From Escherichia phage LL5, in the sequence record NC_047985.1: DNA of 49,788 nucleotides, one strand, 5' to 3'. Below the pieces are notes generated by a model. The model made no database searches. It was given only the letters and a program-made list of their open reading frames with translations, and was not told the origin of the DNA. Every line of letters begins with the position of its first letter. Positions within the stretch are counted from its first letter, which is position 1. Below are positions 1-46,323 of the stretch, one piece after another. The translations under genes and the position numbers were made by a program.

Positions 1-31
1 GGCGCAACGTTCCACAACACGTATAACAACA

Positions 32-50
32 AAATATCTATATAATACAT
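32..50 (+). repeat. 19-bp AT-rich motif AAATATCTATATAATACAT (copy 1)
   Basis: see copy at 28885-28903; contains TATAAT. Confidence 0.7.
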
Positions 51-302
51 TGAAAAGTAAGATAATTATTATTATATATCTATATTGTTATATAACTTGT
101 TTTGCTTGTTTCTCATGATATTGATACCCCTTTACTGATTGATAGAGTATAAAATTATAAGATAGGTGCTCTTATTTATTATTGGTGGCGGTGATTTTTA
201 ACGAAATGGTGTAACGATTTAGAACATCGTTGATTTAAAAGGATAAATTTTCAATTACCGTTACATTGCGTGATGTTTTTGTTGTCTAATCAAAAATAAC
301 AC

Positions 303-330
303 TTGACGCACAAGCCAGATTTGCTAAGGT
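303..330 (+). promoter_or_regulatory. sigma70-like promoter (TTGACG-16 nt-TAAGGT) upstream of first early gene
   Basis: -35 TTGACG at 303-308, -10 TAAGGT at 325-330, then SD GGAGG and ATG 365. Confidence 0.45.
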
Positions 331-364
331 TTCTGCATTGAGCAACAACGGAGGATAACCAATT

Positions 365-652
365 ATGGTAATGGGCAAAATCGTAAAGCGTGACCTATCC
401 ATAGTTGACGCAACGCCAGAAGATGCAACAAAAGACATTATGTGCCTAATGTACATAGCGCGGATACTGGAGGCGGCAAAACCAAACAGGCTATATTACA
501 TCGACATTAAGGCATCAGGTCGCGACGTTAATTCATTGCGCCAGGCAATAAACACGATTGCGAAAGAGGATCGCATAACCATTAAGACAATAACCACTGA
601 TAACGGCTATATCGGCTTTGTTATCATCGACGTTAAAGAAGCATTTGTGTAA
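365..652 (+). CDS. hypothetical early protein (95 aa)
   Basis: ORF with GGAGG 10 nt upstream of ATG; no recognisable motif. Confidence 0.6.
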   Translation: MVMGKIVKRDLSIVDATPEDATKDIMCLMYIARILEAAKPNRLYYIDIKASGRDVNSLRQAINTIAKEDRITIKTITTDNGYIGFVIIDVKEAFV

Positions 653-663
653 AGAGGTGAATC

Positions 664-1107
664 ATGGAACAAATGACAAGTAAAGAGTTTTGCGAAAAAT
701 TGCGTGAAGCAGCAAGAGCGGCGGCTACAGGTGAGGCGATCAAGTTGCCAGTTGCCTACATCACAATGCACGTTCAGGCAGAGGACGCAAAGAAGCTAAA
801 TTCCTCATACATTCGCACGATCATGAATCGTGTTCCAGAAGTAAAAGAGGTTGGATCTGTAAGCGTCAAGAAAAAGACAAGCGATGACGGCGCGGAATAT
901 TACGAGATCGCAATCAATCGTGACACAAAGCGCCGCATCGTAACAACTAATGACCTTCCGGCAATCAAAGAGCATGAACGCGAAAAACTGGTTGAAAAGA
1001 TTATGCGCATATCGCCGGACTTCTCACACCTGGACGATGAAAAGGCACTTGTTGCAATGCGAGCGGTTGCCACGTTCAAAGATCTGATTAAGGAGATCTC
1101 AAAGTGA
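664..1107 (+). CDS. hypothetical early protein (147 aa)
   Basis: ORF with AGAGG SD; tightly follows previous gene. Confidence 0.6.
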   Translation: MEQMTSKEFCEKLREAARAAATGEAIKLPVAYITMHVQAEDAKKLNSSYIRTIMNRVPEVKEVGSVSVKKKTSDDGAEYYEIAINRDTKRRIVTTNDLPAIKEHEREKLVEKIMRISPDFSHLDDEKALVAMRAVATFKDLIKEISK

Positions 1108-1211
1108 AAACATTCGCCTTTGTCGCTGCAATGTGGTGTGTTGTTATTGATAGTCCTGGCGTGGCGCTGGTTGTGTTAGGTCTTATTTTGTTGGGGGTGT
1201 TTGATGAATAA
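1104..1211 (+). CDS. small hydrophobic peptide (35 aa, GTG start)
   Basis: GTG overlaps upstream stop (GTGA), AGGAG 8 nt upstream; predicted single TM helix. Confidence 0.35.
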   Translation: MKTFAFVAAMWCVVIDSPGVALVVLGLILLGVFDE

Positions 1212-1317
1212 GAAACTTTTAGATCATGCAGTGCTGTTCTTTATCGCTGCTGCTGGATTTTCGCTGTTGTCAATTGCTTTTTTAATACTTGCTTTTGCCG
1301 TGTCAATGCTGAAATGA
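1204..1317 (+). CDS. small hydrophobic peptide (37 aa)
   Basis: ATG preceded by GGGGG; hydrophobic core LFFIAAAGFSLLSIAFLILAFAV. Confidence 0.35.
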   Translation: MNKKLLDHAVLFFIAAAGFSLLSIAFLILAFAVSMLK

Positions 1318-1337
1318 CGGATTACATCCTGATTGGT

Positions 1338-1359
1338 AAATAGCACTTTTTGTTAAAAC
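1338..1359 (+). promoter_or_regulatory. conserved box copy 1 (AAATAGCAC-N5-TGTTAAAAC); function unknown
   Basis: TAGCA/TGTTA inverted repeat; hairpin GGGGTA..TACCCC follows; 74 nt upstream of ATG 1415. Confidence 0.7.
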
Positions 1360-1414
1360 TCGATTGGGGTAGTTTGGAATAATTACCCCATAGAAACACA
1401 ACGGAGAAAATAAA

Positions 1415-1678
1415 ATGCAATTCGAACTAACCCGCGTAACTGTTGAAATTCTGAATGACGGAACCTATGACGGAATGAAGCATTTAACATTCCCAATCAG
1501 AATTGAGAATTGCCTTGATTATGGCTTGGAAGTCGGAATGGTTGACGTTCCTCTTGATGCCCTGGTTGCGGCTGGTTATGACAAGGTAAAAGGCGGTATG
1601 AATCCAGAATCGCCGGATTGCATGGATAGTGACACGTTTTTACCGTTCAGCTATGGCGAATGCCGGATTGTTGATTAA
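1415..1678 (+). CDS. hypothetical protein (87 aa)
   Basis: ORF with GGAG SD. Confidence 0.55.
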   Translation: MQFELTRVTVEILNDGTYDGMKHLTFPIRIENCLDYGLEVGMVDVPLDALVAAGYDKVKGGMNPESPDCMDSDTFLPFSYGECRIVD

Positions 1679-1749
1679 GGTTATAAAATGAGCAGTTGGC
1701 ACAATGAGCACGTAATGCAATTCTACCGCCACAGAATAAAGAAAATGCT

Positions 1750-1771
1750 AAATAGCACGAATTGCTAAAAC
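1750..1771 (+). promoter_or_regulatory. conserved box copy 2 (AAATAGCACGAATTGCTAAAAC)
   Basis: perfect TAGCA-N5-TGCTA; followed by hairpin with loop ATTTGTTATAGC; 77 nt upstream of ATG 1830. Confidence 0.7.
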
Positions 1772-1829
1772 TAAATCAGGGGCATTTGTTATAGCGTCCC
1801 TCGTTGAGTTAAGCAAAGGAGAATCAACA

Positions 1830-2396
1830 ATGTTAAGCATCGAAAAAATCAACTTCCCGATCACCTTTAAATTCTATCATCCTGACATGCAAGTTACTTT
1901 CACCAGTAAAACGCACGGAGAATGGGGATGTGGTGGAATAACCGGATTTAAACTTGAGTATTTCGTTAACAAGCACAACAACAAAAATCCAGATAATATC
2001 CATGGCAAAGATGGGTATTATGAAATGGCTGCTTGTGGCAGAGAAGAAAAACGAGAGTATGACGATCTGTTAGACGCTTTGAAATATTTAAATATCAAGC
2101 CTGGCCAGGTCAATTTAAACGGTGCTGTATTCACTGCGTCAGTAGGTGCTAAAGATTACGATTACATTTGCAAGGTTGAAAACATGCCAGTTGGCGCAAC
2201 GCTGTTAGGTGTTCAGCGTGAAAACGGCGAATGGGACGAGTTGAAATTTAAACCACGCCGCATTGAAGTACACGACGATGTTATCTGCTTGCTTTCCGGT
2301 TATGCTGGCGGCTACAAGAGCGGCAATAATTACGGCGCTGAAATCAACATTAAGATCGGCACTAACGTAAAAATCAAAAACAGCACTAATTGCTAA
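1830..2396 (+). CDS. hypothetical protein (188 aa)
   Basis: ORF with AAGGAG SD; C-terminal residues NSTNC are encoded by box copy 3. Confidence 0.6.
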   Translation: MLSIEKINFPITFKFYHPDMQVTFTSKTHGEWGCGGITGFKLEYFVNKHNNKNPDNIHGKDGYYEMAACGREEKREYDDLLDALKYLNIKPGQVNLNGAVFTASVGAKDYDYICKVENMPVGATLLGVQRENGEWDELKFKPRRIEVHDDVICLLSGYAGGYKSGNNYGAEINIKIGTNVKIKNSTNC

Positions 2397-2399
2397 AAC
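2378..2399 (+). promoter_or_regulatory. conserved box copy 3, degenerate (AAACAGCACTAATTGCTAAAAC)
   Basis: TAG position is CAG, so upstream ORF reads through to TAA inside the box; 75 nt upstream of ATG 2456. Confidence 0.6.
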
Positions 2400-2455
2400 A
2401 AATTAACGGCCTTGCTATATAGTAAGACCATACCAAACAACGAGAGGATCACAAA

Positions 2456-2770
2456 ATGGAATTAGCACGCAACGCGGTTTATGGCTTACACCTTAAAGGC
2501 GGCAAAGGATCAACTTATGCACACCTGTTTCATGTTAACGAGCGAGGCCAAATTGATATTGCAATGTATGTTGACCAACTTGTTAAAGGTGGTGAGTACG
2601 ACAAGTTCAGGCCGGATCTGATTGAATACGATCACACATACAGTCACGACCACTGGTTAGATGGTTATAAATTTACAATGCTGGATAGCCATGTTATTGA
2701 CACAAGCAAATTAACGAATCGTGACTATAAGCGCATGGCTCGAAAAATCTTGAAGCAGAAAGCACAATAG
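2456..2770 (+). CDS. hypothetical protein (104 aa)
   Basis: ORF with GAGAGG SD. Confidence 0.55.
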   Translation: MELARNAVYGLHLKGGKGSTYAHLFHVNERGQIDIAMYVDQLVKGGEYDKFRPDLIEYDHTYSHDHWLDGYKFTMLDSHVIDTSKLTNRDYKRMARKILKQKAQ

Positions 2771-2842
2771 CACAAAATGTTAAGCGGTCATGTGTGCTGA
2801 TTGGTACAATGACCGCATCAACCAACAAGAGAGGATAGAAAA

Positions 2843-2950
2843 ATGTCAAAAGAATCAATCAAGCAGTTTCTGAAATACGGCTCTATGATTGTGCTCGCTA
2901 CCGTTGTGCTGGCTGGCATCGCGTATAGCATTATTGAGTTTGCGGGGTAA
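2843..2950 (+). CDS. small membrane peptide (35 aa)
   Basis: AGAGAGG SD; hydrophobic stretch MIVLATVVLAGIAYSII. Confidence 0.4.
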   Translation: MSKESIKQFLKYGSMIVLATVVLAGIAYSIIEFAG

Positions 2951-2953
2951 TTG

Positions 2954-3496
2954 ATGTTTACGATCAACTTGTGGGGAAGGGATTATGTTAATCCCTATGT
3001 TGCAACAAAACAGCGTTTCGTTATTTTCGACCTAGACGGCACATTGTCAAATGGTGAGCACCGCTTGCACCTGTTGCCAACGGTTGATTTGCACCTTACT
3101 GAAAGCTGGAGTGAGTTTAATCGCGCGGCTAAGGATGATTTACCGTTCAGCAATAACATTGCCGTATGCAATGCCATGTTTGATGCAGGATATCTGGTTA
3201 TCATCCTAACAGGTCGCAGTGATGAAGTTGAAGCGGAAACGCGAGAATGGTTGGCTGAAAACGGCGTTTCTTTCGATTGGCTTATTATGCGCCGCACGGA
3301 GGACAACCGGAAAGATACCGTAATCAAAGAGGAAGTTTTACGGACTATAGGACTTGATCGTATTGTGGCGTGTTGGGATGATTCACCAAACGTTATTGCA
3401 CACCTGCGCGGCCTGGGCTTGACGGTTTACCAGGTCATTGACTACGGCGACCAGTTGCACGATCACTTAAAGTCTCACGGAGTTGAGAAGTTATGA
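2954..3496 (+). CDS. HAD-superfamily phosphatase (polynucleotide 3'-phosphatase-like)
   Basis: N-terminal DxDGT motif (FVIFDLDGTL), later ILTGR and C-terminal acidic motif; resembles the phosphatase half of T4-type polynucleotide kinase. Confidence 0.65.
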   Translation: MFTINLWGRDYVNPYVATKQRFVIFDLDGTLSNGEHRLHLLPTVDLHLTESWSEFNRAAKDDLPFSNNIAVCNAMFDAGYLVIILTGRSDEVEAETREWLAENGVSFDWLIMRRTEDNRKDTVIKEEVLRTIGLDRIVACWDDSPNVIAHLRGLGLTVYQVIDYGDQLHDHLKSHGVEKL

Positions 3497-3669
3497 AACT
3501 AAAATGCATCGGTGAATATCCAGGCTTTACGGTTGGAAACATGTACAATGCGACAATAGGAATGGATCACACATTTTGTTATGAATGCTATGTTGTCATT
3601 GATGATGATGGTGATTCACGTAGCATTGATTTCGAAACAGAGGATTTTGTAGAGGATCGCTATCTGTGA
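3493..3669 (+). CDS. hypothetical protein (58 aa)
   Basis: ATGA start/stop overlap with upstream gene; GGAG SD. Confidence 0.45.
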   Translation: MKLKCIGEYPGFTVGNMYNATIGMDHTFCYECYVVIDDDGDSRSIDFETEDFVEDRYL

Positions 3670-3763
3670 TTGAAAACTATGATCCAATGGCGCTTGCCTG
3701 GGGCGTTGGTGCTTTCGTTGTGGCGGTTGTGATTTGCTTATGGGATATAAACAGGGGGGATAG

Positions 3764-3973
3764 ATGATCCTGTCCGTTGCTTATGCTAACCCCAGGGGGT
3801 GCAATATATTTGGTTTTAAGGTTGGCGGCATGGTTAACGCCAAATACGACGACAGAGGGCGTTTAATGGTTGAAGCGCCAAAGACAAAAGTAATGATGCA
3901 CGTTAAGGAGATTGGCGGAAGGTTGGCGATCAGGTCAATGGCAGGGCAAACGCTTGTTACTTTCTGTAAATAG
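3764..3973 (+). CDS. hypothetical protein (69 aa)
   Basis: ORF with GGGGGG SD; stop TAG lies inside box copy 4. Confidence 0.5.
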   Translation: MILSVAYANPRGCNIFGFKVGGMVNAKYDDRGRLMVEAPKTKVMMHVKEIGGRLAIRSMAGQTLVTFCK

Positions 3974-3989
3974 CACTTTTTGCTAAAAC
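3968..3989 (+). promoter_or_regulatory. conserved box copy 4 (AAATAGCACTTTTTGCTAAAAC)
   Basis: followed by perfect 8-bp hairpin 3995-4020 with loop TTTGATAAAG; 76 nt upstream of ATG 4047. Confidence 0.7.
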
Positions 3990-4046
3990 TTGCTAAGGCA
4001 CATTTGATAAAGTGTGCCTTGTCGAGACAAGCAAGGAGAATGACAC

Positions 4047-4301
4047 ATGAAACATTACAGGTGCGGCAGTCTTATTTATCGTGACGATTGGGTTAATATT
4101 TTTGTCGCATATTATGACAAGATGGAATTTTTTGAATCCATTTACACAAGGAGCGTTTTTAATTCAATGGTTGATGCCGGATTCATGAAAGAGTGTGAGC
4201 CACCAAAAGAGAAGCCGTTTTATAAAAATGGTGATTTCTGGCATAACGCCGTATTAATCACAGTTCTGTTAATTCTTTCTATGGGGTTTATTTTCTTATG
4301 A
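4047..4301 (+). CDS. hypothetical protein with C-terminal TM segment (84 aa)
   Basis: AAGGAG SD; C-terminal hydrophobic AVLITVLLILSMGFIFL. Confidence 0.5.
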   Translation: MKHYRCGSLIYRDDWVNIFVAYYDKMEFFESIYTRSVFNSMVDAGFMKECEPPKEKPFYKNGDFWHNAVLITVLLILSMGFIFL

Positions 4302-4480
4302 CACTTGATAATAAAGTTGAAACGCAAAAGACGATTGATTATCTGCGTGACCTGGCAGATAAGCTGGAGAATAACCAGATTCATTTAAACAAGATCGTTA
4401 TTGAATCGCGCAACGTTTGTTGGAACGTGGAAGAAGAAACATTGACAATGCAAGTTTTAAAGGCGGTAAACAATGGCTAA
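4298..4480 (+). CDS. hypothetical protein (60 aa)
   Basis: ATGA overlap with upstream stop. Confidence 0.45.
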   Translation: MTLDNKVETQKTIDYLRDLADKLENNQIHLNKIVIESRNVCWNVEEETLTMQVLKAVNNG

Positions 4481-5048
4481 AATTATCATCCTAAATGCGC
4501 CTCCTGGTGCTGGTAAAGACACAATCGGCAAGATGATTTCTTTCTATTCGCCTGGTGAGCAATGCCGCATCATTAGCTTTAAAGAGCCAATGTTTGATAT
4601 TGCATTAGCTATCCTGGGCAAAGAGAACTATCAGCGTTTCATGCTGGCTTACGATGACAGAGAGCAGAAAGAAAGGCCGCAAACGTTCCTGATGGGTATG
4701 TCGCCTCGAGAGTTCATGATCTGGATTAGCGAGGATGTGATCAAGCCTAAATTCGGCAAGGATTATTTCGGCGTAAGGTTTAACCAGAAAGTAAAAGAGT
4801 GTGATGCTCCTGTTGTTTGCACTGACGGAGGTTTTCCAGATGAAATTATCGCGCTAATCAATGCTGGTAATGAAGTGAAGCTATGCCGTTTGCATCGCGA
4901 CGGGTTCACGTTTGCAGGTGATAGCCGCAACTACATTCGAATCAATCCCTATTACCAGAAAAACGGATATAGCGAGCACGATTACTTACTAACGAATGAA
5001 AAGCCGATGATTACAGTTAGCGAAATCATTCGCGATCACCTTAAATAG
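4473..5048 (+). CDS. P-loop nucleotide or polynucleotide kinase
   Basis: Walker A near N-terminus (LNAPPGAGKDT), typical of small phage dNMP/polynucleotide kinases; stop TAG inside box copy 5. Confidence 0.65.
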   Translation: MAKIIILNAPPGAGKDTIGKMISFYSPGEQCRIISFKEPMFDIALAILGKENYQRFMLAYDDREQKERPQTFLMGMSPREFMIWISEDVIKPKFGKDYFGVRFNQKVKECDAPVVCTDGGFPDEIIALINAGNEVKLCRLHRDGFTFAGDSRNYIRINPYYQKNGYSEHDYLLTNEKPMITVSEIIRDHLK

Positions 5049-5064
5049 CACGAATTGCTAAAAC
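5043..5064 (+). promoter_or_regulatory. conserved box copy 5 (AAATAGCACGAATTGCTAAAAC)
   Basis: followed by hairpin 5071-5094 (AAGGCCA/TGGCCTT, loop TTTGATATAG). Confidence 0.7.
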
Positions 5065-5132
5065 TTGCGCAAGGCCATTTGATATAGTGGCCTTATTCAA
5101 GAGAAGCAACCAATCAGAGGAATAAACGATGA

Positions 5133-5172
5133 AAATCAAATGCACCAAATCAAATGCACCAAATCAAACACC
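5133..5172 (+). repeat. 14-bp tandem repeat (AAATCAAATGCACC x2 plus 12-bp partial copy) at 5' end of ORF
   Basis: two exact units at 5133-5146 and 5147-5160; third copy lacks TG. Confidence 0.8.
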
Positions 5173-5340
5173 CTGAATCTGACAGTTGGCGCGATTTACC
5201 ATATGGAAGAAGGTGTAAACGGGTTTAGCCAGACTGTTACGCATGAATACGGCGGTCACTTCTTCTTAAACGGTAAAGACGGATTATCTGTAAATGTTGG
5301 CTCTTTCGTTCTGGCAGAATTTGAGATCGTGGAGGAATAA
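5140..5340 (+). CDS. hypothetical protein (66 aa); start context disturbed by tandem repeat
   Basis: well-placed ATG 5129 (GAGG 8 nt upstream) is out of frame; in-frame ATG 5140 has no SD. Confidence 0.4.
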   Translation: MHQIKCTKSNTLNLTVGAIYHMEEGVNGFSQTVTHEYGGHFFLNGKDGLSVNVGSFVLAEFEIVEE

Positions 5341-5341
5341 A

Positions 5342-5506
5342 ATGTTCTGGATTCATTCGCCGCAAGGATTGCTTTATGTGCCTGGCGTTGAATTGGAAGA
5401 ACGACGCGACGGCGACACGGTAAACATCATAACGAAGGATTCAAAAGGCCATACGCTTAAAACGTATGTTTTTAACACTCCAGTTAAGGTTGAAAAAGAT
5501 GATTAA
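5342..5506 (+). CDS. hypothetical protein (54 aa)
   Basis: GGAGG SD 6 nt upstream of ATG 5342. Confidence 0.45.
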   Translation: MFWIHSPQGLLYVPGVELEERRDGDTVNIITKDSKGHTLKTYVFNTPVKVEKDD

Positions 5507-5625
5507 GATGTGGTTAATATTTATCCTGCTTGTCATAATTGGCAATATTTTGATTGTCGCTTATTGTGTTCCTTTTGGTGGCACTGTTTTGGCTATGGCT
5601 GGTTATTACGTGGGGTACAAATCAA

Positions 5626-5871
5626 ATGAATAGAAAAATGCTGGTACGCGCATTCGCAAAGATTGCTAAAAGATGGGGTGATTCAGCTAAAACGCCTTAC
5701 ACGTTTAGTATGTACGGTTACAAGAATGCTCGCGCCTGGGGTCGCTGCATTGCGGATAACTACAACTCCGAAATGCTGGAAGATTTCGCAAAGTGGATTG
5801 ATACGCCTTTGAAGGATTGGTGTCAATTTGACTATGACTATTTCGCAGAAGAAGAAATTTCTTGTTGGTAA
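5626..5871 (+). CDS. hypothetical protein (81 aa)
   Basis: first ATG of ORF; upstream part of track ORF uses TTG; a 44-aa membrane-peptide ORF (5499-5633) overlaps. Confidence 0.4.
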   Translation: MNRKMLVRAFAKIAKRWGDSAKTPYTFSMYGYKNARAWGRCIADNYNSEMLEDFAKWIDTPLKDWCQFDYDYFAEEEISCW

Positions 5872-5882
5872 GGAGAGTAAAC

Positions 5883-6353
5883 ATGATCGCTAAAAATGAC
5901 CTTTGCAACATGTTAACGGCTGGTAATGATTATCAGGTTTTGAATAGCACAGAAGACCATTATTTTATTGAGTGTGATAATGGGGATCGCATGTGGATTA
6001 AAAAATGCTTTTTCGAAAGCGAGCACCTAAGCAATGCAAAGCGGATCGCAGATGAAGCAAGCGCATTAGCAGAGCGTGAACGAATTCGCGATATAGTAGC
6101 TGAGCAGGTTAGAAATTCTTGTTTGCCTGGTGGCGATATCTTCAATCACGTAAAAGGCGTTGGCGGCTCAGGCTGGCAGATTAAAAAGACTGGTGATGCA
6201 ATCATTCAAAGCATCAACTATGAGCCTAACGAATACGTCAAAGTGCTGGATCAGTTGCGCGAAATCATGCGAGTGCCTGAAGGTGAAAGCATTGTGACAC
6301 ATGCAAAGGTTTTAATGGCGTTGGCTGATGCGCTGATTTGTCTGCAAAAATAG
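5883..6353 (+). CDS. hypothetical protein (156 aa)
   Basis: AGGAG SD then ATG 5883; stop TAG inside box copy 6. Confidence 0.55.
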   Translation: MIAKNDLCNMLTAGNDYQVLNSTEDHYFIECDNGDRMWIKKCFFESEHLSNAKRIADEASALAERERIRDIVAEQVRNSCLPGGDIFNHVKGVGGSGWQIKKTGDAIIQSINYEPNEYVKVLDQLREIMRVPEGESIVTHAKVLMALADALICLQK

Positions 6354-6369
6354 CACTTTTTGTTAAAAC
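6348..6369 (+). promoter_or_regulatory. conserved box copy 6 (AAATAGCACTTTTTGTTAAAAC)
   Basis: followed by hairpin 6377-6398 (loop TTTGTTAAAG, one G.T pair); 76 nt upstream of ATG 6427. Confidence 0.7.
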
Positions 6370-6426
6370 TTCCGCGAGGGCATTTGTTAAAGTGTCCTAA
6401 TTGAAGCGAAACATGGAGATTACGAA

Positions 6427-6630
6427 ATGGCTGTATACACTGGCAAGATGTTTGAATGTCTCAATCCGATTTACGGCGGCAACTATGAGCTAATCATTGA
6501 TGATGATCGCGTTATTCTTGCTAATGATGACGCTGAAGAATATCACGAGGTTGTAGCGGATAAGTACGATAATGACGTTATGATCTTAGCAGGAAACAAC
6601 CGCATCAAGTTTTACGCAGTGGAGGAATAA
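6427..6630 (+). CDS. hypothetical protein (67 aa)
   Basis: ORF with GGAG SD. Confidence 0.5.
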   Translation: MAVYTGKMFECLNPIYGGNYELIIDDDRVILANDDAEEYHEVVADKYDNDVMILAGNNRIKFYAVEE

Positions 6631-6633
6631 CAG

Positions 6634-6939
6634 ATGATCGAAATCAACCTATCAGAAGAACAAGCGAAATCGTTGCTAATGTGCCTGGGTTGGCGCATGG
6701 GCGCAGGTAGCGAGGCGGTTGTAAACATCAAAGAGGAAGTAGCAAGAGAGCTTTTTGCACAGCTTGAGCATAAACTGATGCCAGCCTCAACAAGCGCGGC
6801 GGAGTTGGCTGTGTGGAGGCATGAAAACGGCCTTAATGAAATGGATGTTGAAAAGTGGAAGCGTAAAAACGGGAAAGCTGTTGATAAGGTTGGTTTTGTT
6901 GGTCGCTGTATTATGGTTAACGTGGAGAAGTTCAGATGA
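6634..6939 (+). CDS. hypothetical protein (101 aa)
   Basis: ORF with GGAGG SD. Confidence 0.55.
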   Translation: MIEINLSEEQAKSLLMCLGWRMGAGSEAVVNIKEEVARELFAQLEHKLMPASTSAAELAVWRHENGLNEMDVEKWKRKNGKAVDKVGFVGRCIMVNVEKFR

Positions 6940-7253
6940 TTTATGTTCATAGCTACGGCGTTGGAAAGTTTGGCAGTAAGCAGATCCGAAATATTCACGA
7001 CACGCTCGATGAAGCAATGGCGCAGAAACGCGTTTTAGGTGGAGTGGTTCAGGCGTTTGAATCTGTTGAGAACATAGCTGCTAACGAGTATTACAAAGAC
7101 GTTGTTGTGGATGAGGTTTCGACAATCATCGACGAACTAAGCACGTCAGCGCTAGGCTCACCACGCGATCTTGAGTCGGGTTCTCCAGCGTGGGATAGCT
7201 ACAAGGTCAAGACTTTAAACAACATCCGCGAGCTACTTGACGAAATCAATTAA
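6936..7253 (+). CDS. hypothetical protein (105 aa)
   Basis: ATGA overlap with upstream gene. Confidence 0.55.
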   Translation: MIYVHSYGVGKFGSKQIRNIHDTLDEAMAQKRVLGGVVQAFESVENIAANEYYKDVVVDEVSTIIDELSTSALGSPRDLESGSPAWDSYKVKTLNNIRELLDEIN

Positions 7254-7271
7254 AAATCGATACTGTTTAAA

Positions 7272-7305
7272 GCGCCTCAGACGCATTCTAAGAGGCGCAA
7301 AATTT
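7272..7305 (+). terminator. putative terminator hairpin (GCGCCTC..GAGGCGC) with A/T tract
   Basis: 7-bp GC-rich inverted repeat then AAAATTT, 20 nt after stop of 6936-7253. Confidence 0.35.
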
Positions 7306-7319
7306 GGAAAGGTGATTCT

Positions 7320-7448
7320 ATGCCTAACTACATAAAACCGTCGCAGTGGTGCGCACAGAAGCAAGAGGAAGCGTTAGAGCGCGGCGACACTGATACAGCG
7401 TTGCACTATTTTGAAATGCACCAACTATGGATTAGCAGAGGAATGTAA
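7320..7448 (+). CDS. hypothetical small protein (42 aa)
   Basis: AAGGTG SD; below track length cutoff. Confidence 0.35.
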   Translation: MPNYIKPSQWCAQKQEEALERGDTDTALHYFEMHQLWISRGM

Positions 7449-7449
7449 A

Positions 7450-7677
7450 ATGTTTGGACTTAACGAGGAACAATACAACGCAATAAAGAAAATGGCTCGC
7501 GAGTGCAACAAAGAATTGAAATTCGAATGTGACAACGGCAAGAAGTATGATCACGTTGCAACGGGAATTATCACAAAGCACCACACGCCAGTTTCGACGC
7601 TAATCACTCGCATTAGTTTTATTTGGCTTTGCGGTCACTTAGCGGAGCGGTTCGGTAGGGTTGGCGAGTACGAATAA
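7450..7677 (+). CDS. hypothetical protein (75 aa)
   Basis: GAGG SD then ATG 7450 (track ORF extends upstream without SD). Confidence 0.45.
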   Translation: MFGLNEEQYNAIKKMARECNKELKFECDNGKKYDHVATGIITKHHTPVSTLITRISFIWLCGHLAERFGRVGEYE

Positions 7678-7859
7678 TAGCCAGTTGAATCTGGTAAGGT
7701 TGACGGCGTGTTGTCTGATTGGTAGATTAAACGCCGTGAACATAAGAGACTCAATAGAGCAAAGCGCGGCGCGTTAGCCGTAAAGCCAAATCGGATGGGA
7801 TTGCATTGCAAATGACCATCGCGGGAACCGTAACCCGCAACCACTCAGGAGATTAATTT

Positions 7860-8069
7860 ATGAAATGCACTTTGCTTTTCAAAGAAAGAGTTTTGCACCC
7901 TGGTAGCGAACTTCTTGTTAATCGCGTCATTGTTTCAGAAAAAGATTTCTATATTGATGTTCAAAGGGATGGTGTCATAATCTTAAACAAAGAAGATACA
8001 AAGGCGTTTTCATTCCCAAAACACAACATCATCCAGCTTATCGTAGAGGAAGAAAATAATGCAGAATAA
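7860..8069 (+). CDS. hypothetical protein (69 aa)
   Basis: AGGAG SD. Confidence 0.5.
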   Translation: MKCTLLFKERVLHPGSELLVNRVIVSEKDFYIDVQRDGVIILNKEDTKAFSFPKHNIIQLIVEEENNAE

Positions 8070-14909: not shown

Positions 14910-14958
14910 CGTGCTAACACAAAAAACACTTGAACGTTTAACAAAAAATGCTATATTA

Positions 14959-19510: not shown

Positions 19511-22420
19511 ATGGCTGAACAATTTGCAGGTTTAACACTTGGCGTTAACGTCGAGCAGTTAAACAGGGCTGTAAAGTCATTGCAGGACTTTAAAAAAGCA
19601 AACGACGAAGCAAAGAAAGGCGTTGAGAGCTTTGTTAATGAGGAAGAAATTGCAAAGCAAAGAGCAAAACAATTAGCTGATGAATTGGCGAAACAGAGCC
19701 GTGAATTTAAACGCATTCAGGACACTGTTGATCCGACAGCGGCGAAAATGCGCAAGCTATCTCAGGCAGCAAGAGATCTTGATAAGCTATGGCAAAAGGG
19801 CCTTGTTCCCGATGAAACGTTTTTCCAGTTGGGGAGTATGCTGGAAACTCAGATCAGTAAGCTGGAGCGTAATAAAAAGGCGTTAACGGAAGAAGGCCGC
19901 GCAGCACTTGAGGAATCAAAAGCCAAAGATAAAGCAGCGTTAGCCGGAAAAACTTTCCTTGCGGATCTGGAATCGCAAGCAGCCGCTCTTGGCAAAACAA
20001 AAGCCGAATTACTGGAAATGAAAGCGGCGCAACTTGGCGTAAGTGCTCAGGCAGCGCCATTCATTGCACAGCTTAAAGCGCAAGAAAAACAGATGAATTT
20101 AACCGGAATTAGCGCAGGGCAATATAACCAGGCAATGCGAATGCTTCCGGCTCAGATCACTGACGTTGTAACGTCGCTGGCTTCCGGTATGCCTGTTTGG
20201 TTGGTTGCAATCCAGCAGGGTGGACAGATTAAAGATTCTTTCGGCGGCGTTGGTAATACGTTTAAAGTGCTGTTGTCGTTTCTGAATCCGGTAAACGTTG
20301 GCCTTGCCGCATTAGCCGTTTCAATGGGTGCTCTTGTTAAGGCTGGTTATGATGCGTATAAGTCGCAACGTGACTTGCAAGAGGCGTTGGTGCTGACTGG
20401 TGGCTATGCTGGCACAAGCGGCGCACAGTTCGATAAGCTGGCGCAGGACATTAATAACAGCACTGATGCGACGATAGGAAGCATCCGATCCATCGCAACA
20501 GAGCTTGCAAAATCCGGCAAATTCACGATTGATCAGATTAAATCGATCACAAAGACTACCGCTCAGTGGTCAACGGTAACGGGTGAATCAAGCGACAAGA
20601 TAACCGATTACTTTAATAAGATTGCTGGCGATCCGGTTAAAGGTCTTGCAGAGCTAAACGAGCAATTCAACTTTTTAAGCGAAGGGCAGTTAACTTATAT
20701 TGCAGACCTGGAGGAAACGAAAGGAAAAACGGAAGCAGTGACGGCGGCGACAAAGTTATTTGCTGATGTTATGGATCAGAGATTAGCTAAACTGGCAGAC
20801 TCCGCAACGCCATTAGAAAAGATGTGGACGAACATTAAAAAATGGGCGTCAGATGCATGGGGTTGGGTTGGAGATCACACGCTGGCGGCGCTTAACCTGA
20901 TTATTGACGTTGTAGCCGGAACCGTTGAGCAGGTTCGTTACTTGCTTAATCAGGGTGATATTCTCATTGGTGAGTTTATCGTGTCTGCAACAAAGGCTAT
21001 GCAAAAAATACCTGGTCTTGATGGAGTTGGTGATTCAGTAATTGCACAGCAGCAACAGATCATTAATAAATCAAAAGAGCAAAACAAAGAGCTATTAAAA
21101 TCAATTGCCGAACGTAACGAGCGAGTCAAAAAAGGCGAGCAGGGTTACATTGACATGATAAAAAATCGTGCGGCGGTTGAACAGCAATATGCTACTAAAA
21201 CAAAGGATAATATCAGGAAGGAAGCCGAGGAATTAGCCAAACGCGATAAAAAGCAAAAGGCTGAAAAAGTTAAGGTATCGGCTGGCGATAAGCTGGAAGA
21301 ACAATATCAGCGTGATATCCTGGCGTTAGAAACTCAATTAAGAGTTTTGAAAGAGCACAAGACGATCACAGATACCATAAGCCAGCAACGTAAATCTTTA
21401 TGGGCTGAACAAGCTAAAATTCAGATTTTGCAAGAAGCCTCAACAAAACGGCAACTTACTGATGAAGAAAAAAGCATTTTAGCCAACAAAGATAAGATCC
21501 TAGCGATGGCTGAACAAAAAGCTATTTTAGGAGATCAGATTGTTGCACAAACGCGCCTTAATCAGTTGCAAGATAGCTCAATCAAGTTTATCCAGCAGCA
21601 GAAAGCAGCAACAGAAGCACTAGCCAAAACCAGAGGGTTAAGTGAACGTGAAGCAGCAAGAGCGGCGGAACGTGCAAAGGTTGAGGCTGATTATCTTGCC
21701 AAAGGAGGCAAGGAAGGAGATCCGCAACTTAAAGCCATGATGGATGCCTTAGACAACCGCTATAAAGAGGAAGATGATAAACGCGCTGATTGGTTAGCTG
21801 GCGCTAAAAATGCCTTTGCGGAGTATGGCGAGGAAGCAATGAACATGTATGATAATATCGGCAACATTGCGAGCCAGGCGCTAAACGGCCTATCGCAACA
21901 AATGGCTGATTTTTTGACTACTGGACAAGCCAACTTTAAAGACTTTGCAAAATCGATCATTAGCCTTATTGTTCAGATGATCACAAAGATGGTTATCTTC
22001 AATAGCATTTCCGGCATGATGGGCGGCTCAACATGGACGCTTGGAAGCCTTTTAAGCGGTGCTGGTTTTTCTGGCGGCGGTTATACTGGCGACGGTGGCA
22101 AATATGATCCGGCTGGAGTTGTTCATAAAGGTGAGTTTGTTTTTACCAAAGAGGCAACGCAAAGGATCGGAGCCAAAAACCTGTATCGCATGATGCGAGG
22201 TTATGCAAACGGCGGTCAAGTAGGAAGCGTGACAACTGGCGGCGCTGGCATCAATCGCGGTGCATCGCAATTTGCATTTGGTGATATCAACGTTAACATT
22301 GACAACGGTCAAGATCCAAAAGGGATGGAAACTGGTATTAAGATGATTTTCACCGAAATGATTCAACGTTCATGCTCGCAAGGTGGCGAGGTTTATAATT
22401 TTGTTCATGGGAGGGCTTAA
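19511..22420 (+). CDS. tail tape measure protein
   Basis: 969 aa, coiled-coil-rich with internal hydrophobic segments; GAGGG SD. Confidence 0.85.
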   Translation: MAEQFAGLTLGVNVEQLNRAVKSLQDFKKANDEAKKGVESFVNEEEIAKQRAKQLADELAKQSREFKRIQDTVDPTAAKMRKLSQAARDLDKLWQKGLVPDETFFQLGSMLETQISKLERNKKALTEEGRAALEESKAKDKAALAGKTFLADLESQAAALGKTKAELLEMKAAQLGVSAQAAPFIAQLKAQEKQMNLTGISAGQYNQAMRMLPAQITDVVTSLASGMPVWLVAIQQGGQIKDSFGGVGNTFKVLLSFLNPVNVGLAALAVSMGALVKAGYDAYKSQRDLQEALVLTGGYAGTSGAQFDKLAQDINNSTDATIGSIRSIATELAKSGKFTIDQIKSITKTTAQWSTVTGESSDKITDYFNKIAGDPVKGLAELNEQFNFLSEGQLTYIADLEETKGKTEAVTAATKLFADVMDQRLAKLADSATPLEKMWTNIKKWASDAWGWVGDHTLAALNLIIDVVAGTVEQVRYLLNQGDILIGEFIVSATKAMQKIPGLDGVGDSVIAQQQQIINKSKEQNKELLKSIAERNERVKKGEQGYIDMIKNRAAVEQQYATKTKDNIRKEAEELAKRDKKQKAEKVKVSAGDKLEEQYQRDILALETQLRVLKEHKTITDTISQQRKSLWAEQAKIQILQEASTKRQLTDEEKSILANKDKILAMAEQKAILGDQIVAQTRLNQLQDSSIKFIQQQKAATEALAKTRGLSEREAARAAERAKVEADYLAKGGKEGDPQLKAMMDALDNRYKEEDDKRADWLAGAKNAFAEYGEEAMNMYDNIGNIASQALNGLSQQMADFLTTGQANFKDFAKSIISLIVQMITKMVIFNSISGMMGGSTWTLGSLLSGAGFSGGGYTGDGGKYDPAGVVHKGEFVFTKEATQRIGAKNLYRMMRGYANGGQVGSVTTGGAGINRGASQFAFGDINVNIDNGQDPKGMETGIKMIFTEMIQRSCSQGGEVYNFVHGRA

Positions 22421-24936: not shown

Positions 24937-24985
24937 TTACATGTACAATGGCAGCACGTTTAAATAGCATAAAAGGTTAAAAGCT

Positions 24986-35421: not shown

Positions 35422-35478
35422 TTATCAACCTCCAAATAAAAACCTGGCACGATGATAAACCATGCCAGGCCGGAATTT

Positions 35479-36087
35479 TTAGCAATCAGTGCTATCGACG
35501 GAAATCACAACGCGTTTCTTCTGATTGGCTTCCTTTGCTTTGCGCCGTTCTTCTTTCGCCTTTTCGCGTTCAGCTTTGCGCCGCGCTTTCTCCTTCTCGC
35601 GTTCTTCTGGACTCATAGACCTCAACGGATCGTAAGGCCGGACAAATCCTCTTGCTTCCGCTTCCTCTTTGGTTACAAATCGCATCAGCTTTCTGTTGCT
35701 GCAACGATTCTCTAATGGCTTGCCGTTATTATCAAATTTGATATCTGGACGGCAATATGAAGCGCGGAAGCCGTTAAAACCTTTGCGTCGGTAATCTTTC
35801 TGGATCAGTTCAGCGCCTTTAGTTGAAATCATTCCGCGCTCTTTCCATCCCCATACTGTTTTAAGGTTAACGCCAATTTCACGCGCCAGGGCAGCGCAAC
35901 CGCCGTAAGCGTTGACAACTTCATCAAGCCGTGCTTTTAATCCTGCTCTTACTTCTTCCTTTAATACAAGATAACCGCTAACAGGTGAGCGACGTTTACG
36001 ATCTTTACCACGTCTTACGCCGTTGTTACCATTGATTGTGCGTTTGTCGATTTCGCCAGTTGAGGCAGCAATTTTGATTTCGCTCAT
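35479..36087 (-). CDS. putative DNA-binding protein with basic C-terminal tail
   Basis: HTH-like AALAREIGVNLKTVWGWKERG; Lys/Arg/Glu-rich C-terminus. Confidence 0.45.
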   Translation of the reverse strand: MSEIKIAASTGEIDKRTINGNNGVRRGKDRKRRSPVSGYLVLKEEVRAGLKARLDEVVNAYGGCAALAREIGVNLKTVWGWKERGMISTKGAELIQKDYRRKGFNGFRASYCRPDIKFDNNGKPLENRCSNRKLMRFVTKEEAEARGFVRPYDPLRSMSPEEREKEKARRKAEREKAKEERRKAKEANQKKRVVISVDSTDC

Positions 36088-38910: not shown

Positions 38911-39651
38911 ATGGCTAAAGATATTCAGGACAAAACCACAATTGACACTTTCGCACAGGAAATGTATTTTCATGAACTGCAACACGGCAGATATTCAGAT
39001 ATTGCGTTGCGTTCAGGTGGTCATTATCAGCCAGTTAGAGAAAACCCAATGTTCAAGGTTAGCGGAAACCGTTATGCAGGAAGCAAAACGCCGGACGTTG
39101 TGCGCGATTTGTGGGAAACGCCAGATGAAATTGTTGAATATCTTGCTGGACGTTACGGAAAATATGATCTTGATGCAGCCGCAACGGAAGATAACAAAAA
39201 ATGCGATAAGTTTTACAGCAAAGAAACAAACTGTTTAAAGCGTTGGTGGGGTAGCAATAAGCACGTTTGGTTAAATCCACCATATAGCAATCCAGATCCA
39301 TTTATCAAAAAAGCAATTGAGCAGATGGAACACGGAAATCAGATTGATATTTTGCTTCCCGCTGATAATTCGACGGCATGGTTTAGTGACGCACAAAAAC
39401 ACGCGGCAGAAATTATCTGGATTACTGGTGAAACCTGGAAGGATGAAGAAGGTCGCGAATATTCCAGAACTGGTCGAGTAGCGTTTATTTCTGGCATGAC
39501 AGGTGAGCCAGTTAGCGGAAACAATAAAGGTAGTGTAATTTTTATCATGCGCCAATTGGAAGAAGGTGAGCAACAGCAAACGCACTATGTGAAGATTAGC
39601 GACATTTGCCCTTCCGTAAAAAATAAACGAGCCAAAGCGCGGAGTATTTAA
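38911..39651 (+). CDS. DNA N6-adenine methyltransferase (phage Dam-type)
   Basis: DLDAAAT (motif I-like) and NPPYS (motif IV). Confidence 0.85.
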   Translation: MAKDIQDKTTIDTFAQEMYFHELQHGRYSDIALRSGGHYQPVRENPMFKVSGNRYAGSKTPDVVRDLWETPDEIVEYLAGRYGKYDLDAAATEDNKKCDKFYSKETNCLKRWWGSNKHVWLNPPYSNPDPFIKKAIEQMEHGNQIDILLPADNSTAWFSDAQKHAAEIIWITGETWKDEEGREYSRTGRVAFISGMTGEPVSGNNKGSVIFIMRQLEEGEQQQTHYVKISDICPSVKNKRAKARSI

Positions 39652-39652
39652 A

Positions 39653-39883
39653 ATGAGCATTCGATTAGCCGATCACATGAAATGGGATTTATTTGTCGGT
39701 ATGACAATTCGCTTACTTGATAAGCATGGTTATAACGATGATAAAATGGAGTTGATAAACTGCCTGGATATGACATTTGACGAAATCAAAGTTGCGCCTT
39801 TGTACATGTGGGAAAGAAAAATTGAGCACGACCTGATACAATACAAACGCAGAGAGGGCGCACGATTTTTTAATGTGAAATAG
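39653..39883 (+). CDS. hypothetical protein (76 aa)
   Basis: start adjacent to MTase stop; stop TAG inside box copy 10. Confidence 0.5.
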   Translation: MSIRLADHMKWDLFVGMTIRLLDKHGYNDDKMELINCLDMTFDEIKVAPLYMWERKIEHDLIQYKRREGARFFNVK

Positions 39884-39899
39884 CACTTTTTGTTAAAAC
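39878..39899 (+). promoter_or_regulatory. conserved box copy 10 (AAATAGCACTTTTTGTTAAAAC)
   Basis: followed by CCCGCTACGGCGGG plus TTTT (same hairpin as after copy 12); 74 nt upstream of ATG 39955. Confidence 0.7.
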
Positions 39900-39954
39900 C
39901 CGCTACGGCGGGTTTTGTATTATGTTCTTAACGGAAAACAAGAGGATTTCAAAA

Positions 39955-46257: not shown

Positions 46258-46301
46258 TGTTTCCTCCTGTTGTCTGTAATGTAACAAACCCGCCGTAGCG
46301 G

Positions 46302-46323
46302 GTTTTAACATTTTGTGCTATTT
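46302..46323 (-). promoter_or_regulatory. conserved box copy 12 (- strand AAATAGCACAAAATGTTAAAAC)
   Basis: TAG is stop of the C5-MTase-like gene; followed by CCCGCTACGGCGGG hairpin plus TTTG; 63 nt upstream of ATG 46257. Confidence 0.7.

Follow-up and report, generated by a model that had tools for sequence, protein, structure and literature searches.

Promoters of the class II marbox type carry a forward-oriented site that overlaps and replaces the −35 element and clusters near −41, followed by a canonical −10 hexamer (PMC12052159, PMC8811837, PMC10268841); the marbox consensus for MarA, SoxS and Rob derived from chromatin immunoprecipitation is GCAHWWWWTGYYAAA (PMC6900184). Complexes on the micF promoter have been solved with RamA (PMC8811837), and those with Rob or SoxS are among the structures cited in PMC10268841. 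A second relevant class comprises intercistronic stem-loops such as REP-type hairpins and the RNase III sites of phage T7, which are GC-rich, follow a stop codon in read-through RNA, and vary in sequence while pairing is kept and G·U is tolerated. Here we describe an element of Escherichia phage LL5 (sequence record NC_047985.1; the 49,788 nucleotides analyzed are termed the window) which resembles both: a 20-nt box is followed at a fixed distance by a predicted extended −10, and in a subset of units a covarying hairpin is superimposed on that −10 in a fixed register.

The box itself is the published 21-nt direct repeat of T1/TLS phages. The 2024 reannotation of Escherichia phage TLS lists aaATAGCACnnnTTGnTAAAA in 18–21 copies per genome, facing the same way as transcription and located ∼76 nt 5′ of start codons, assigns only three sigma-70-like promoters, and treats the function of the repeat as an open question for which a stoperator, an enhancer site or a UP element is proposed (PMC11447400). 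No fixed-distance −10, marbox match or hairpin is reported there, and the words “hairpin” and “stem” are absent from the text of PMC11447400; in Citrobacter phage Stevie, the same element is annotated as a plain repeat_region. Positions 1300–6500 of the window, a left-arm cluster of small early genes, are ∼90% identical to phage TLS, with hundreds of other Drexlerviridae (T1-like) genomes being similar (323 database records match the early region). To assemble a unit dataset, IMG/VR was scanned for the box and each box with ≤2 mismatches was taken with its flanks; the window, TLS, Stevie, T1 and ∼21 further multi-box contigs yielded 358 units, 330 of them unique, from ∼25 Drexlerviridae genomes. 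Offsets are counted from the T of TAGCAC, such that the window hairpins pair position i with 73−i (register 73). All transcription start sites (TSS) given below are predicted.

The preliminary description of this locus had noted hairpins after four early boxes (copies 2, 4, 5 and 6) with a nearly invariant loop, which was considered a possible loop-specific binding site. The profile of the 330 units does not favor this assignment. Following an unconstrained stretch after the box, T and G occupy offsets 34 and 35 (G−14 in 269 units), offsets 37–42 favor T, A, T, A, A and T (227, 289, 237, 200, 178 and 287 units, respectively), and offsets 48 and 49 favor C and A (222 and 264), with A at the predicted +1 in 81–83% of units and a conserved A-rich leader, AUCGAAAC, 3′ of the start site. 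The hexamer pattern TAnnnT begins at offset 37 in 63% of units and at any other offset in ≤7%; in the window, box-N20-TAnnnT occurs in 16 units versus 0.08 expected. The motif TG-n-T-A-T-A-A/G-T was equally present in 81 units with a register-73 hairpin and in 218 units without this hairpin. As read from these profiles, the loop motif is a predicted extended −10 (TGnTATAAT-like) of a sigma-70 promoter with a C−1/A+1 start, the A lying 7 nt past the hexamer. Conservation of the loop would thus reflect its role as a promoter element and not its place in a hairpin, and its consensus TTTG-W-TA-W-AG corresponds to T−17 T−16 T−15 G−14 n T−12 A−11 n A−9 G−8. Part of the extra conservation in hairpin units (A−18, T−17, T−16 and G−8) arises from base pairing to the 3′ half of the −10, by which these bases lengthen the stem; the inverted repeat is centered at −13/−12, the upstream edge of the −10. 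A scan of positions 1–8000 for canonical −35/−10 pairs gave 11 promoter-like hits versus 18.6 expected, none at the units, and detected no alternative promoter 5′ of the box.

Upstream of this −10, the phage core GCAC-TTTT-TG-C/T-T-AAA agrees with the marbox consensus at 15 of 15 positions, and matches to that consensus with ≤1 mismatch number 21 in the window versus 3.6 expected. Across the 330 units, the conserved GCAC and TGYTAAA and the variable, A/T-rich 4-nt middle coincide with the conserved and degenerate positions of the marbox. Counted from the predicted TSS, the box runs from −50 to −31, is centered at about −40, always points toward the gene and, given this span, would replace the −35 element; a spacer of 17–18 bp would place AAAACn or TAAAAC at −35. 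The E. coli micF promoter reads ACAGCACTGAATGTCAAAAC, 18 bp, TAGAAT, 7 nt, +1, and the phage units read ATAGCACnnnnTGYTAAAAC, 18 bp, −10, 6 nt, predicted +1. The two share the asymmetric 20-nt site (AYnGCAC…RYYAAAY; in full AYnGCACnnWnnRYYAAAYn), forward and centered at about −40/−41 where it overlaps the −35 region, no recognizable −35 hexamer, the 18-bp gap, and a canonical −10 and start site. Judged by consensus, orientation and spacing, box plus fixed extended −10 appear essentially the same as a micF-like class II marbox promoter. The earlier notion of a protein-binding box is thereby retained and made specific, the box being a putative class II marbox. Unlike host marbox promoters, the phage has ∼20 near-consensus copies in 50 kb, far less degenerate, which would drive early and late genes alike, mostly with an extended −10 TG.

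A search of all six-frame open reading frames (ORFs) with phmmer, using MarA, SoxS and Rob queries, detected no phage homologue of these proteins (best E = 0.098), which points to host Rob, MarA or SoxS as the probable binder and activator. In the literature searched, no link between Rob, MarA or SoxS and T1-like phages was found. Several other identities for the box were considered and rejected. Middle promoters of phage T4 likewise combine an extended −10 with a conserved box that replaces the −35, and the LL5 box holds a TTTGCT-like core. The T4 MotA box is centered at −30, and the LL5 box at about −40; Pfam searches with ten early ORFs returned DUF families only, with no MotA or AsiA. A palindromic dimer site, TAGCA-N5-TGCTA at −42 in the manner of lambda cI at PRM, is broken by the frequent TGTTA variant and has asymmetric flanks in the phage, and each position, conserved or degenerate, is accounted for by the asymmetric marbox. 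TTGCTA within the box would require, as a −35 element, a spacer of 22 bp, which is too long. Hairpin promoters of the N4 type, with stems of 5–7 bp and a 3-nt loop for the virion RNA polymerase, differ from the LL5 hairpins, whose loops of 4–12 nt hold the predicted sigma-70 −10. An RNA polymerase gene is absent from TLS-type phages (PMC11447400). The box repeat is thus already known, as are intercistronic hairpins and class II marbox promoters as kinds; what appears to be new is the T1-family repeat as a micF-like class II promoter, its fixed extended −10, and a covarying hairpin that overlies the −10 and keeps a constant register with it.

The stems of the hairpins are real, covarying and conserved across Tunavirinae and Tempevirinae, as demonstrated by register enrichment, a covariation score and compensatory swaps. 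The four stem-loops of the preliminary description were located as described, with every sequence at its site and two of the four stems needing a G·T pair. Among the 330 unique units, Watson-Crick complementarity in register 73 was 0.408, compared with 0.306 ± 0.008 when 3′ halves were swapped among units (z = 12.6; the adjoining registers 72 and 74 gave z = 1.5 and 4.2). Contiguous stems of ≥6 bp in this register occurred in 81 units versus 18 in a shuffle preserving column composition, and in 4–27 units in neighboring registers; the stems are thus paired in one register to the box, in keeping with the composite unit of box and hairpin proposed earlier. Covariation, also claimed in the preliminary description, was assessed in an alignment of 111 non-redundant units chosen without regard to pairing, from which representatives lacking a −10-like sequence had been removed by eye. 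The score was 0.232 versus 0.179 ± 0.011 after shuffling, a value attained in none of 500 shuffles; slid-partner controls scored 0.08–0.19, all below that observed, and double-change cells numbered 133 versus 88 ± 10 expected. Compensatory swaps among homologous units include AAGGCC/GGCCTT, AAGCCC/GGGCTT, GAGGGC/GCCCTC, AAGGGC/GCCCTT, GTAACGTC/GGCGTTAC and GGGATAAC/GTTATCCC. Stems lengthen into the flanks of the “loop” via A-T, T-A/G and T-A pairs, reaching 9–12 bp in the window and ≤15 bp in relatives, with loops of 4–12 nt. Over all units, hairpins overlap or enclose the −10 in 57% and are confined to the spacer in 26%; 24 spacer hairpins with a T-tract are genuine terminators, and 41 units have a weak hairpin or none. 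Rfam 15 gave no match at gathering score over the whole window, nor at E ≤ 1 over positions 1200–7400.

The units of the early cluster, together with two related units elsewhere, are listed below; that of copy 1 contains a fifth hairpin of the same type, beyond the four described earlier.

1340–1359 (+): box copy 1, 20-nt marbox-like ATAGCACTTTTTGTTAAAAC, 0 mismatches to GCAHWWWWTGYYAAA.
1365–1390 (+): hairpin TGGGGTAGTT (1365–1374)/AATTACCCCA (1381–1390), −14.7 kcal/mol, z −4.1, enclosing an extended −10 (TG 1375–1376, AATAAT 1378–1383); predicted TSS A1390.
1752–1771 (+): box copy 2 (marbox); an stp-like ORF runs through it and stops at a TAA within the box.
1778–1801 (+): hairpin AGGGGC (1778–1783)/GTCCCT (1796–1801), one G·U; loop with TG 1787–1788 and −10 TATAGC 1790–1795; predicted TSS ∼1802–1803.
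2380–2399 (+): box copy 3 (marbox, CAGCAC variant); ORF 1830–2396 stops at a TAA within it.
2408–2430 (+): imperfect stem GGCCTT/AAGACC, 5 of 6 pairs, around −10 TATAGT 2418–2423; predicted TSS A2430.
2767–2786 (+): degenerate box copy, 3 mismatches; TAG 2768–2770 is the stop of ORF 2456–2770.
2784–2817 (+): hairpin GCGGTCAT (2784–2791)/ATGACCGC (2809–2816) in another register, −20.1 kcal/mol; −10 TACAAT 2805–2810; predicted TSS A2817.
3970–3989 (+): box copy 4 (marbox); TAG 3971–3973 is the stop of ORF 3764–3973.
3994–4021 (+): extended hairpin TAAGGCACATTT/AAGTGTGCCTTG, loop GATA, −17.7 kcal/mol, z −4.8, with core arms AAGGCACA (3995–4002) and TGTGCCTT (4013–4020); TG 4005–4006, −10 TAAAGT 4008–4013; predicted TSS ∼4020–4021.
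5045–5064 (+): box copy 5 (marbox); TAG 5046–5048 is the stop of the dNMP kinase ORF 4473–5048.
5071–5094 (+): hairpin AAGGCCATT/AGTGGCCTT (AAGGCCA 5071–5077/TGGCCTT 5088–5094), −13.2 kcal/mol; TG 5080–5081, −10 TATAGT 5083–5088; predicted TSS A5095.
6350–6369 (+): box copy 6 (marbox); TAG 6351–6353 is the stop of ORF 5862–6353.
6377–6398 (+): hairpin AGGGCATTT/AAGTGTCCT, two G·U, loop GTTA, core AGGGCA (6377–6382)/TGTCCT (6393–6398), folding at −11.7 (sense) versus −3.5 kcal/mol (antisense); TG 6385–6386, −10 TAAAGT 6388–6393; predicted TSS A6400.
39881–39923 (+): related unit, box followed by terminator hairpin CCCGCTACGGCGGG (39900–39913) in the promoter spacer; its T-tract runs into −10 TATTAT 39918–39923.
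46278–46320 (−): related unit, identical terminator hairpin CCCGCTACGGCGGG (46288–46301) between the box and −10 TACATT.

Taken together, we assign a probability of roughly 55% to an account in which each intergenic unit is a dual-coded cassette, a marbox promoter in DNA and a protective or processing hairpin for the upstream cistron in read-through RNA. At the DNA level, the cassette would be a sigma-70 promoter without a −35, composed of a forward marbox (ATAGCAC-N4-TGYTAAAAC), 18 bp, an extended −10 and a C-A start, with host Rob, MarA or SoxS as activator. At the RNA level, the nucleotides left free by the promoter (18-bp spacer and discriminator) would be selected to pair with each other; aided by pairing of A−18/T−17/T−16 with the 3′ half of the −10, they would yield a 9–15 bp stem-loop with the −10 in or next to the loop. 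This hairpin would form in read-through transcripts, starting ∼20 nt past the stop codon that the upstream gene has within the box. Most probably it shields or defines the upstream cistron on its 3′ side, whether by barring exonucleases, by blocking RNase E scanning, or as a processing landmark, which would adjoin an A-rich, unstructured leader. The slot after the stop codon would hold a terminator in some units and a non-terminating stem-loop in the early cluster. Of the two levels, the anatomy of the promoter is far better founded than the function of the RNA: motif, geometry, covariation, strand bias and association with upstream co-directional genes are seen in silico, and start sites, activator binding and RNA function are proposed from them. 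Compared with known intercistronic stem-loops, the LL5 hairpin differs in that it lies over a promoter at a fixed register, its loop holding the −10, and in having stems shorter than RNase III substrates.

Location relative to genes is consistent with a role in read-through RNA. A co-directional ORF of ≥40 codons ends within or next to the box in 272 of the 330 units, the upstream stop being the box TAG in 138 and the box TAA in 36; in the window, ORFs end at boxes at 2396, 2770, 3973, 5048 and 6353. Units with an upstream ORF fold more stably than those without (mean −12.4 versus −8.8 kcal/mol, p = 0.003), and folding of ≤−10 kcal/mol was observed in 74% versus 38%. The preliminary description had also offered terminators as a reading of these hairpins. 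The four hairpins do resemble intrinsic terminators in being GC-rich and 3′ of a gene, unlike which they are followed by the tails GTCGAGAC, ATTCAAGA, AATTGAAG and CGTTGAGT and by no U-tract; the U-tract is present only in the sister units at 39900–39923 and 46278–46301, which occupy the same slot. A terminator scan of positions 1–8000 gave 8 hits versus 6.5 expected, none at box units or the four hairpins. Because no T-tract follows the hairpins and terminator hits are at chance level, read-through is expected. In phage Stevie, the first annotated terminator in the early region examined lies past the last box unit. With respect to the promoter whose −10 it encloses, the 3′ arm of the hairpin occupies −7/−6 to about +1, such that RNA from its own promoter holds ≤1–2 nt of the stem. 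Since the 3′ arm ends at the predicted +1, the hairpin would be absent from the mRNA of its own promoter and present only in read-through RNA from upstream promoters, and is predicted not to be a 5′ untranslated region (5′ UTR) structure of the downstream gene.

The main rival, which we regard as improbable, is that the nascent hairpin acts as a leaky or factor-dependent terminator, pause or insulator, halting or slowing part of the arriving polymerases; gene blocks would then rely mainly on their own marbox promoter, and promoter occlusion would be lowered. Bona fide terminators do occupy the same slot elsewhere (the 24 spacer hairpins with a T-tract, including 39900–39913 and 46288–46301), bearing out a remark in the preliminary description that copies 10 and 12 share an identical hairpin followed by a T-tract. 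Also in favor of this reading, hairpins of the AAGGCC family are followed by UUAUU, and hairpins are associated with upstream co-directional genes. However, most register-73 stems have tails of the CAUCGAAAC type, which are not U-rich, and the terminator scan picks none of the four hairpins.

A DNA-level role, with the inverted repeat extruding as a hairpin or cruciform under supercoiling and modulating promoter opening (a supercoiling-sensitive or pre-melted promoter), would account for the rigid register with the −10 and the center at −13/−12. To see which strand pairs, stems were defined symmetrically, with G·T-type and A·C-type mismatches allowed equally. Among 38 unique stems, 299 pairs were Watson-Crick, 37 were G·U and 4 were A·C; column composition alone predicts a G·U to A·C ratio of 0.74:1. 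Window hairpins folded with ViennaRNA at −9.3 to −17.7 kcal/mol on the sense strand (z −1.9 to −4.8) and at only −3.5 to −11.3 kcal/mol on the antisense strand. Over offsets 17–57 of the 330 units, mean minimum free energy was −11.2 (sense) and −9.4 kcal/mol (antisense), compared with −7.0 when 5′ halves were joined to unrelated 3′ halves as chimeras and −2.7 for a downstream segment of equal length. The G·U excess and the folding energies support the hairpin being a sense-strand, single-stranded RNA-type structure, as the preliminary description had supposed. One strand thus pairs well, where a cruciform needs both; hairpin strength tracks the upstream co-directional gene, unexpected for a purely promoter-level role; and loops of 4–12 nt with stems of 6–12 bp extrude poorly. 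We consider extrusion unlikely.

The model closest to the preliminary description places the hairpin in the 5′ UTR of the downstream gene, with its loop bound by a protein or nuclease, as a processing, stability or antitermination element on its own transcript. Covarying stems, a sense-strand preference for G·U and a strongly conserved loop are all in accord with it. But the loop motif is the putative extended −10, fixed 18 bp from the box and kept equally in the 218 units lacking the hairpin, the conserved C-A start lies at the 3′ end of the stem, no upstream promoter is detectable, and Rfam offers no match at E ≤ 1, making this model very unlikely. A conserved loop on covarying stems need not, as a caution, signify an RNA-recognition motif. 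Least likely of all is an absence of function, with stems inherited through duplication of promoter cassettes or arising from independent composition preferences: columns 27–29 are G-rich and 45–48 C-rich over the full set of units, and many units are clearly paralogous, but the excess of long stems over composition-preserving shuffles and the double compensatory changes among homologous units contradict it.

Returning to the dual-coded cassette, several points weigh against it. The units are interrelated, such that shuffle statistics overstate independence; slid-register controls, register controls and counts of unique stems lessen this kinship problem but do not abolish it. Of the 37 G·U pairs, 14 fall in a single column, their G being provided by the −10 variant TAnAGT, and the G·U to A·C ratio without this column is 23:4 (binomial p ∼6e-6). 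Good hairpins are present in some units without a long upstream ORF, several following very short ORFs such as stp. The searchable literature contains no measured TSS, 3′ end or protein binding for T1-like phages. Sites for RNase III need about two helical turns of double-stranded RNA, often with an internal loop; stems of 9–12 bp in the window and ≤15 bp in relatives are too short for classical sites, by which a processing site of the T7 R1.1 type was rejected, and no nuclease site is identifiable in the units. Finally, a simple stabilizer has no evident need of a rigid −13/−12 register, a feature that we would attribute to the lack of free sequence.

The broader proposition, that T1/TLS-family phages run almost their whole transcription from ∼20 micF-like marbox promoters, each overprinted with a read-through RNA hairpin, has in our estimation about an even chance of being correct. 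If true, expression of these phages would be tuned by host Rob, MarA and SoxS (RamA in Klebsiella and Salmonella) and hence by bile salts, antibiotics and oxidative stress, and the role of the 21-nt repeat would be explained. Phages of the T1 type are abundant and of classic standing, and find use in phage therapy as well as in BASEL-type collections, yet hardly any of their promoters are known. The marbox reading suggests that lytic phage expression is coupled to the host antibiotic and stress regulon, which also controls the receptor TolC. The coding is tight: into an intergenic segment of ∼75 nt are packed the stop codon, the activator site and the promoter, along with a covarying RNA structure and the 5′ UTR.

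Other observations concern the units and their surroundings. The first transcribed bases are conserved (C−1 A+1 U C G/A A A A C r A A A, AUCGAAACGAAAC; for example, 1390–1402 and 2817–2829; profile over loci L003–L122), and this leader is followed by GGAG or GAGG and an ATG ∼25 nt downstream. Hairpins of the AAGGCC type go with a second leader family, CGTTGAGTTAAGCAA / ATTGAAGCA...AACCAATCAG. A role of the conserved leader in promoter escape, in translation or as an RNase site is conceivable. At 39900–39913 (+) and 46288–46301 (−), the terminator T-tract doubles as the T-rich/TG region 5′ of the −10; terminator and promoter overlap by design in these two units. A box unit at 35443–35494 (−) has a hairpin, CCTGGCA…TGCCAGG, enclosing a −10-like TATCAT; next come TTTTTATTT and, immediately after it, a ribosome-binding site. 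The unit looks like a terminator and promoter on the same bases. Five degenerate box-like matches with 3 mismatches, at 14935–14953 (−), 24965–24983 (+), 5654–5672 (+), 19529–19547 (−) and 39259–39277 (+), lack a −10 at the fixed distance, at least two of them lying inside coding sequence; these are probably chance or decayed copies and not promoter units.

The leftmost region, positions 1–360, is very AT-rich with repeated TATAT motifs. The sole sigma-70 candidates of canonical appearance close to the early genes are located there, namely TTGATA-16-TAGAGT with TG (121–148) and TTGACG...TAAGGT (∼304–331), which may be box-independent immediate-early promoters. At 1688–1768, a 26-codon ORF similar to T4 Stp, to which the TLS and Stevie annotations ascribe activation of the PrrC anticodon nuclease of the host, passes through box copy 2 to its stop, a TAA inside the box; because it reads through the box, part of the copy 2 marbox is coding. 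Compared with TLS (L002 5220–5252), 14 nt are duplicated in tandem (…AATCAAATGCACCAAATCAAATGCACC…) within positions 5129–5176, where the gp15 homologue starts. Its original ATG (5129) meets a TGA after 15 codons, and an ATG born of the repeat (5140) restores the frame. Lastly, the database matches include records labelled as Streptococcus, Campylobacter and Vibrio phages, with 85–91% identity to this enterobacterial phage; these are probably mislabelled or contaminant genomes.

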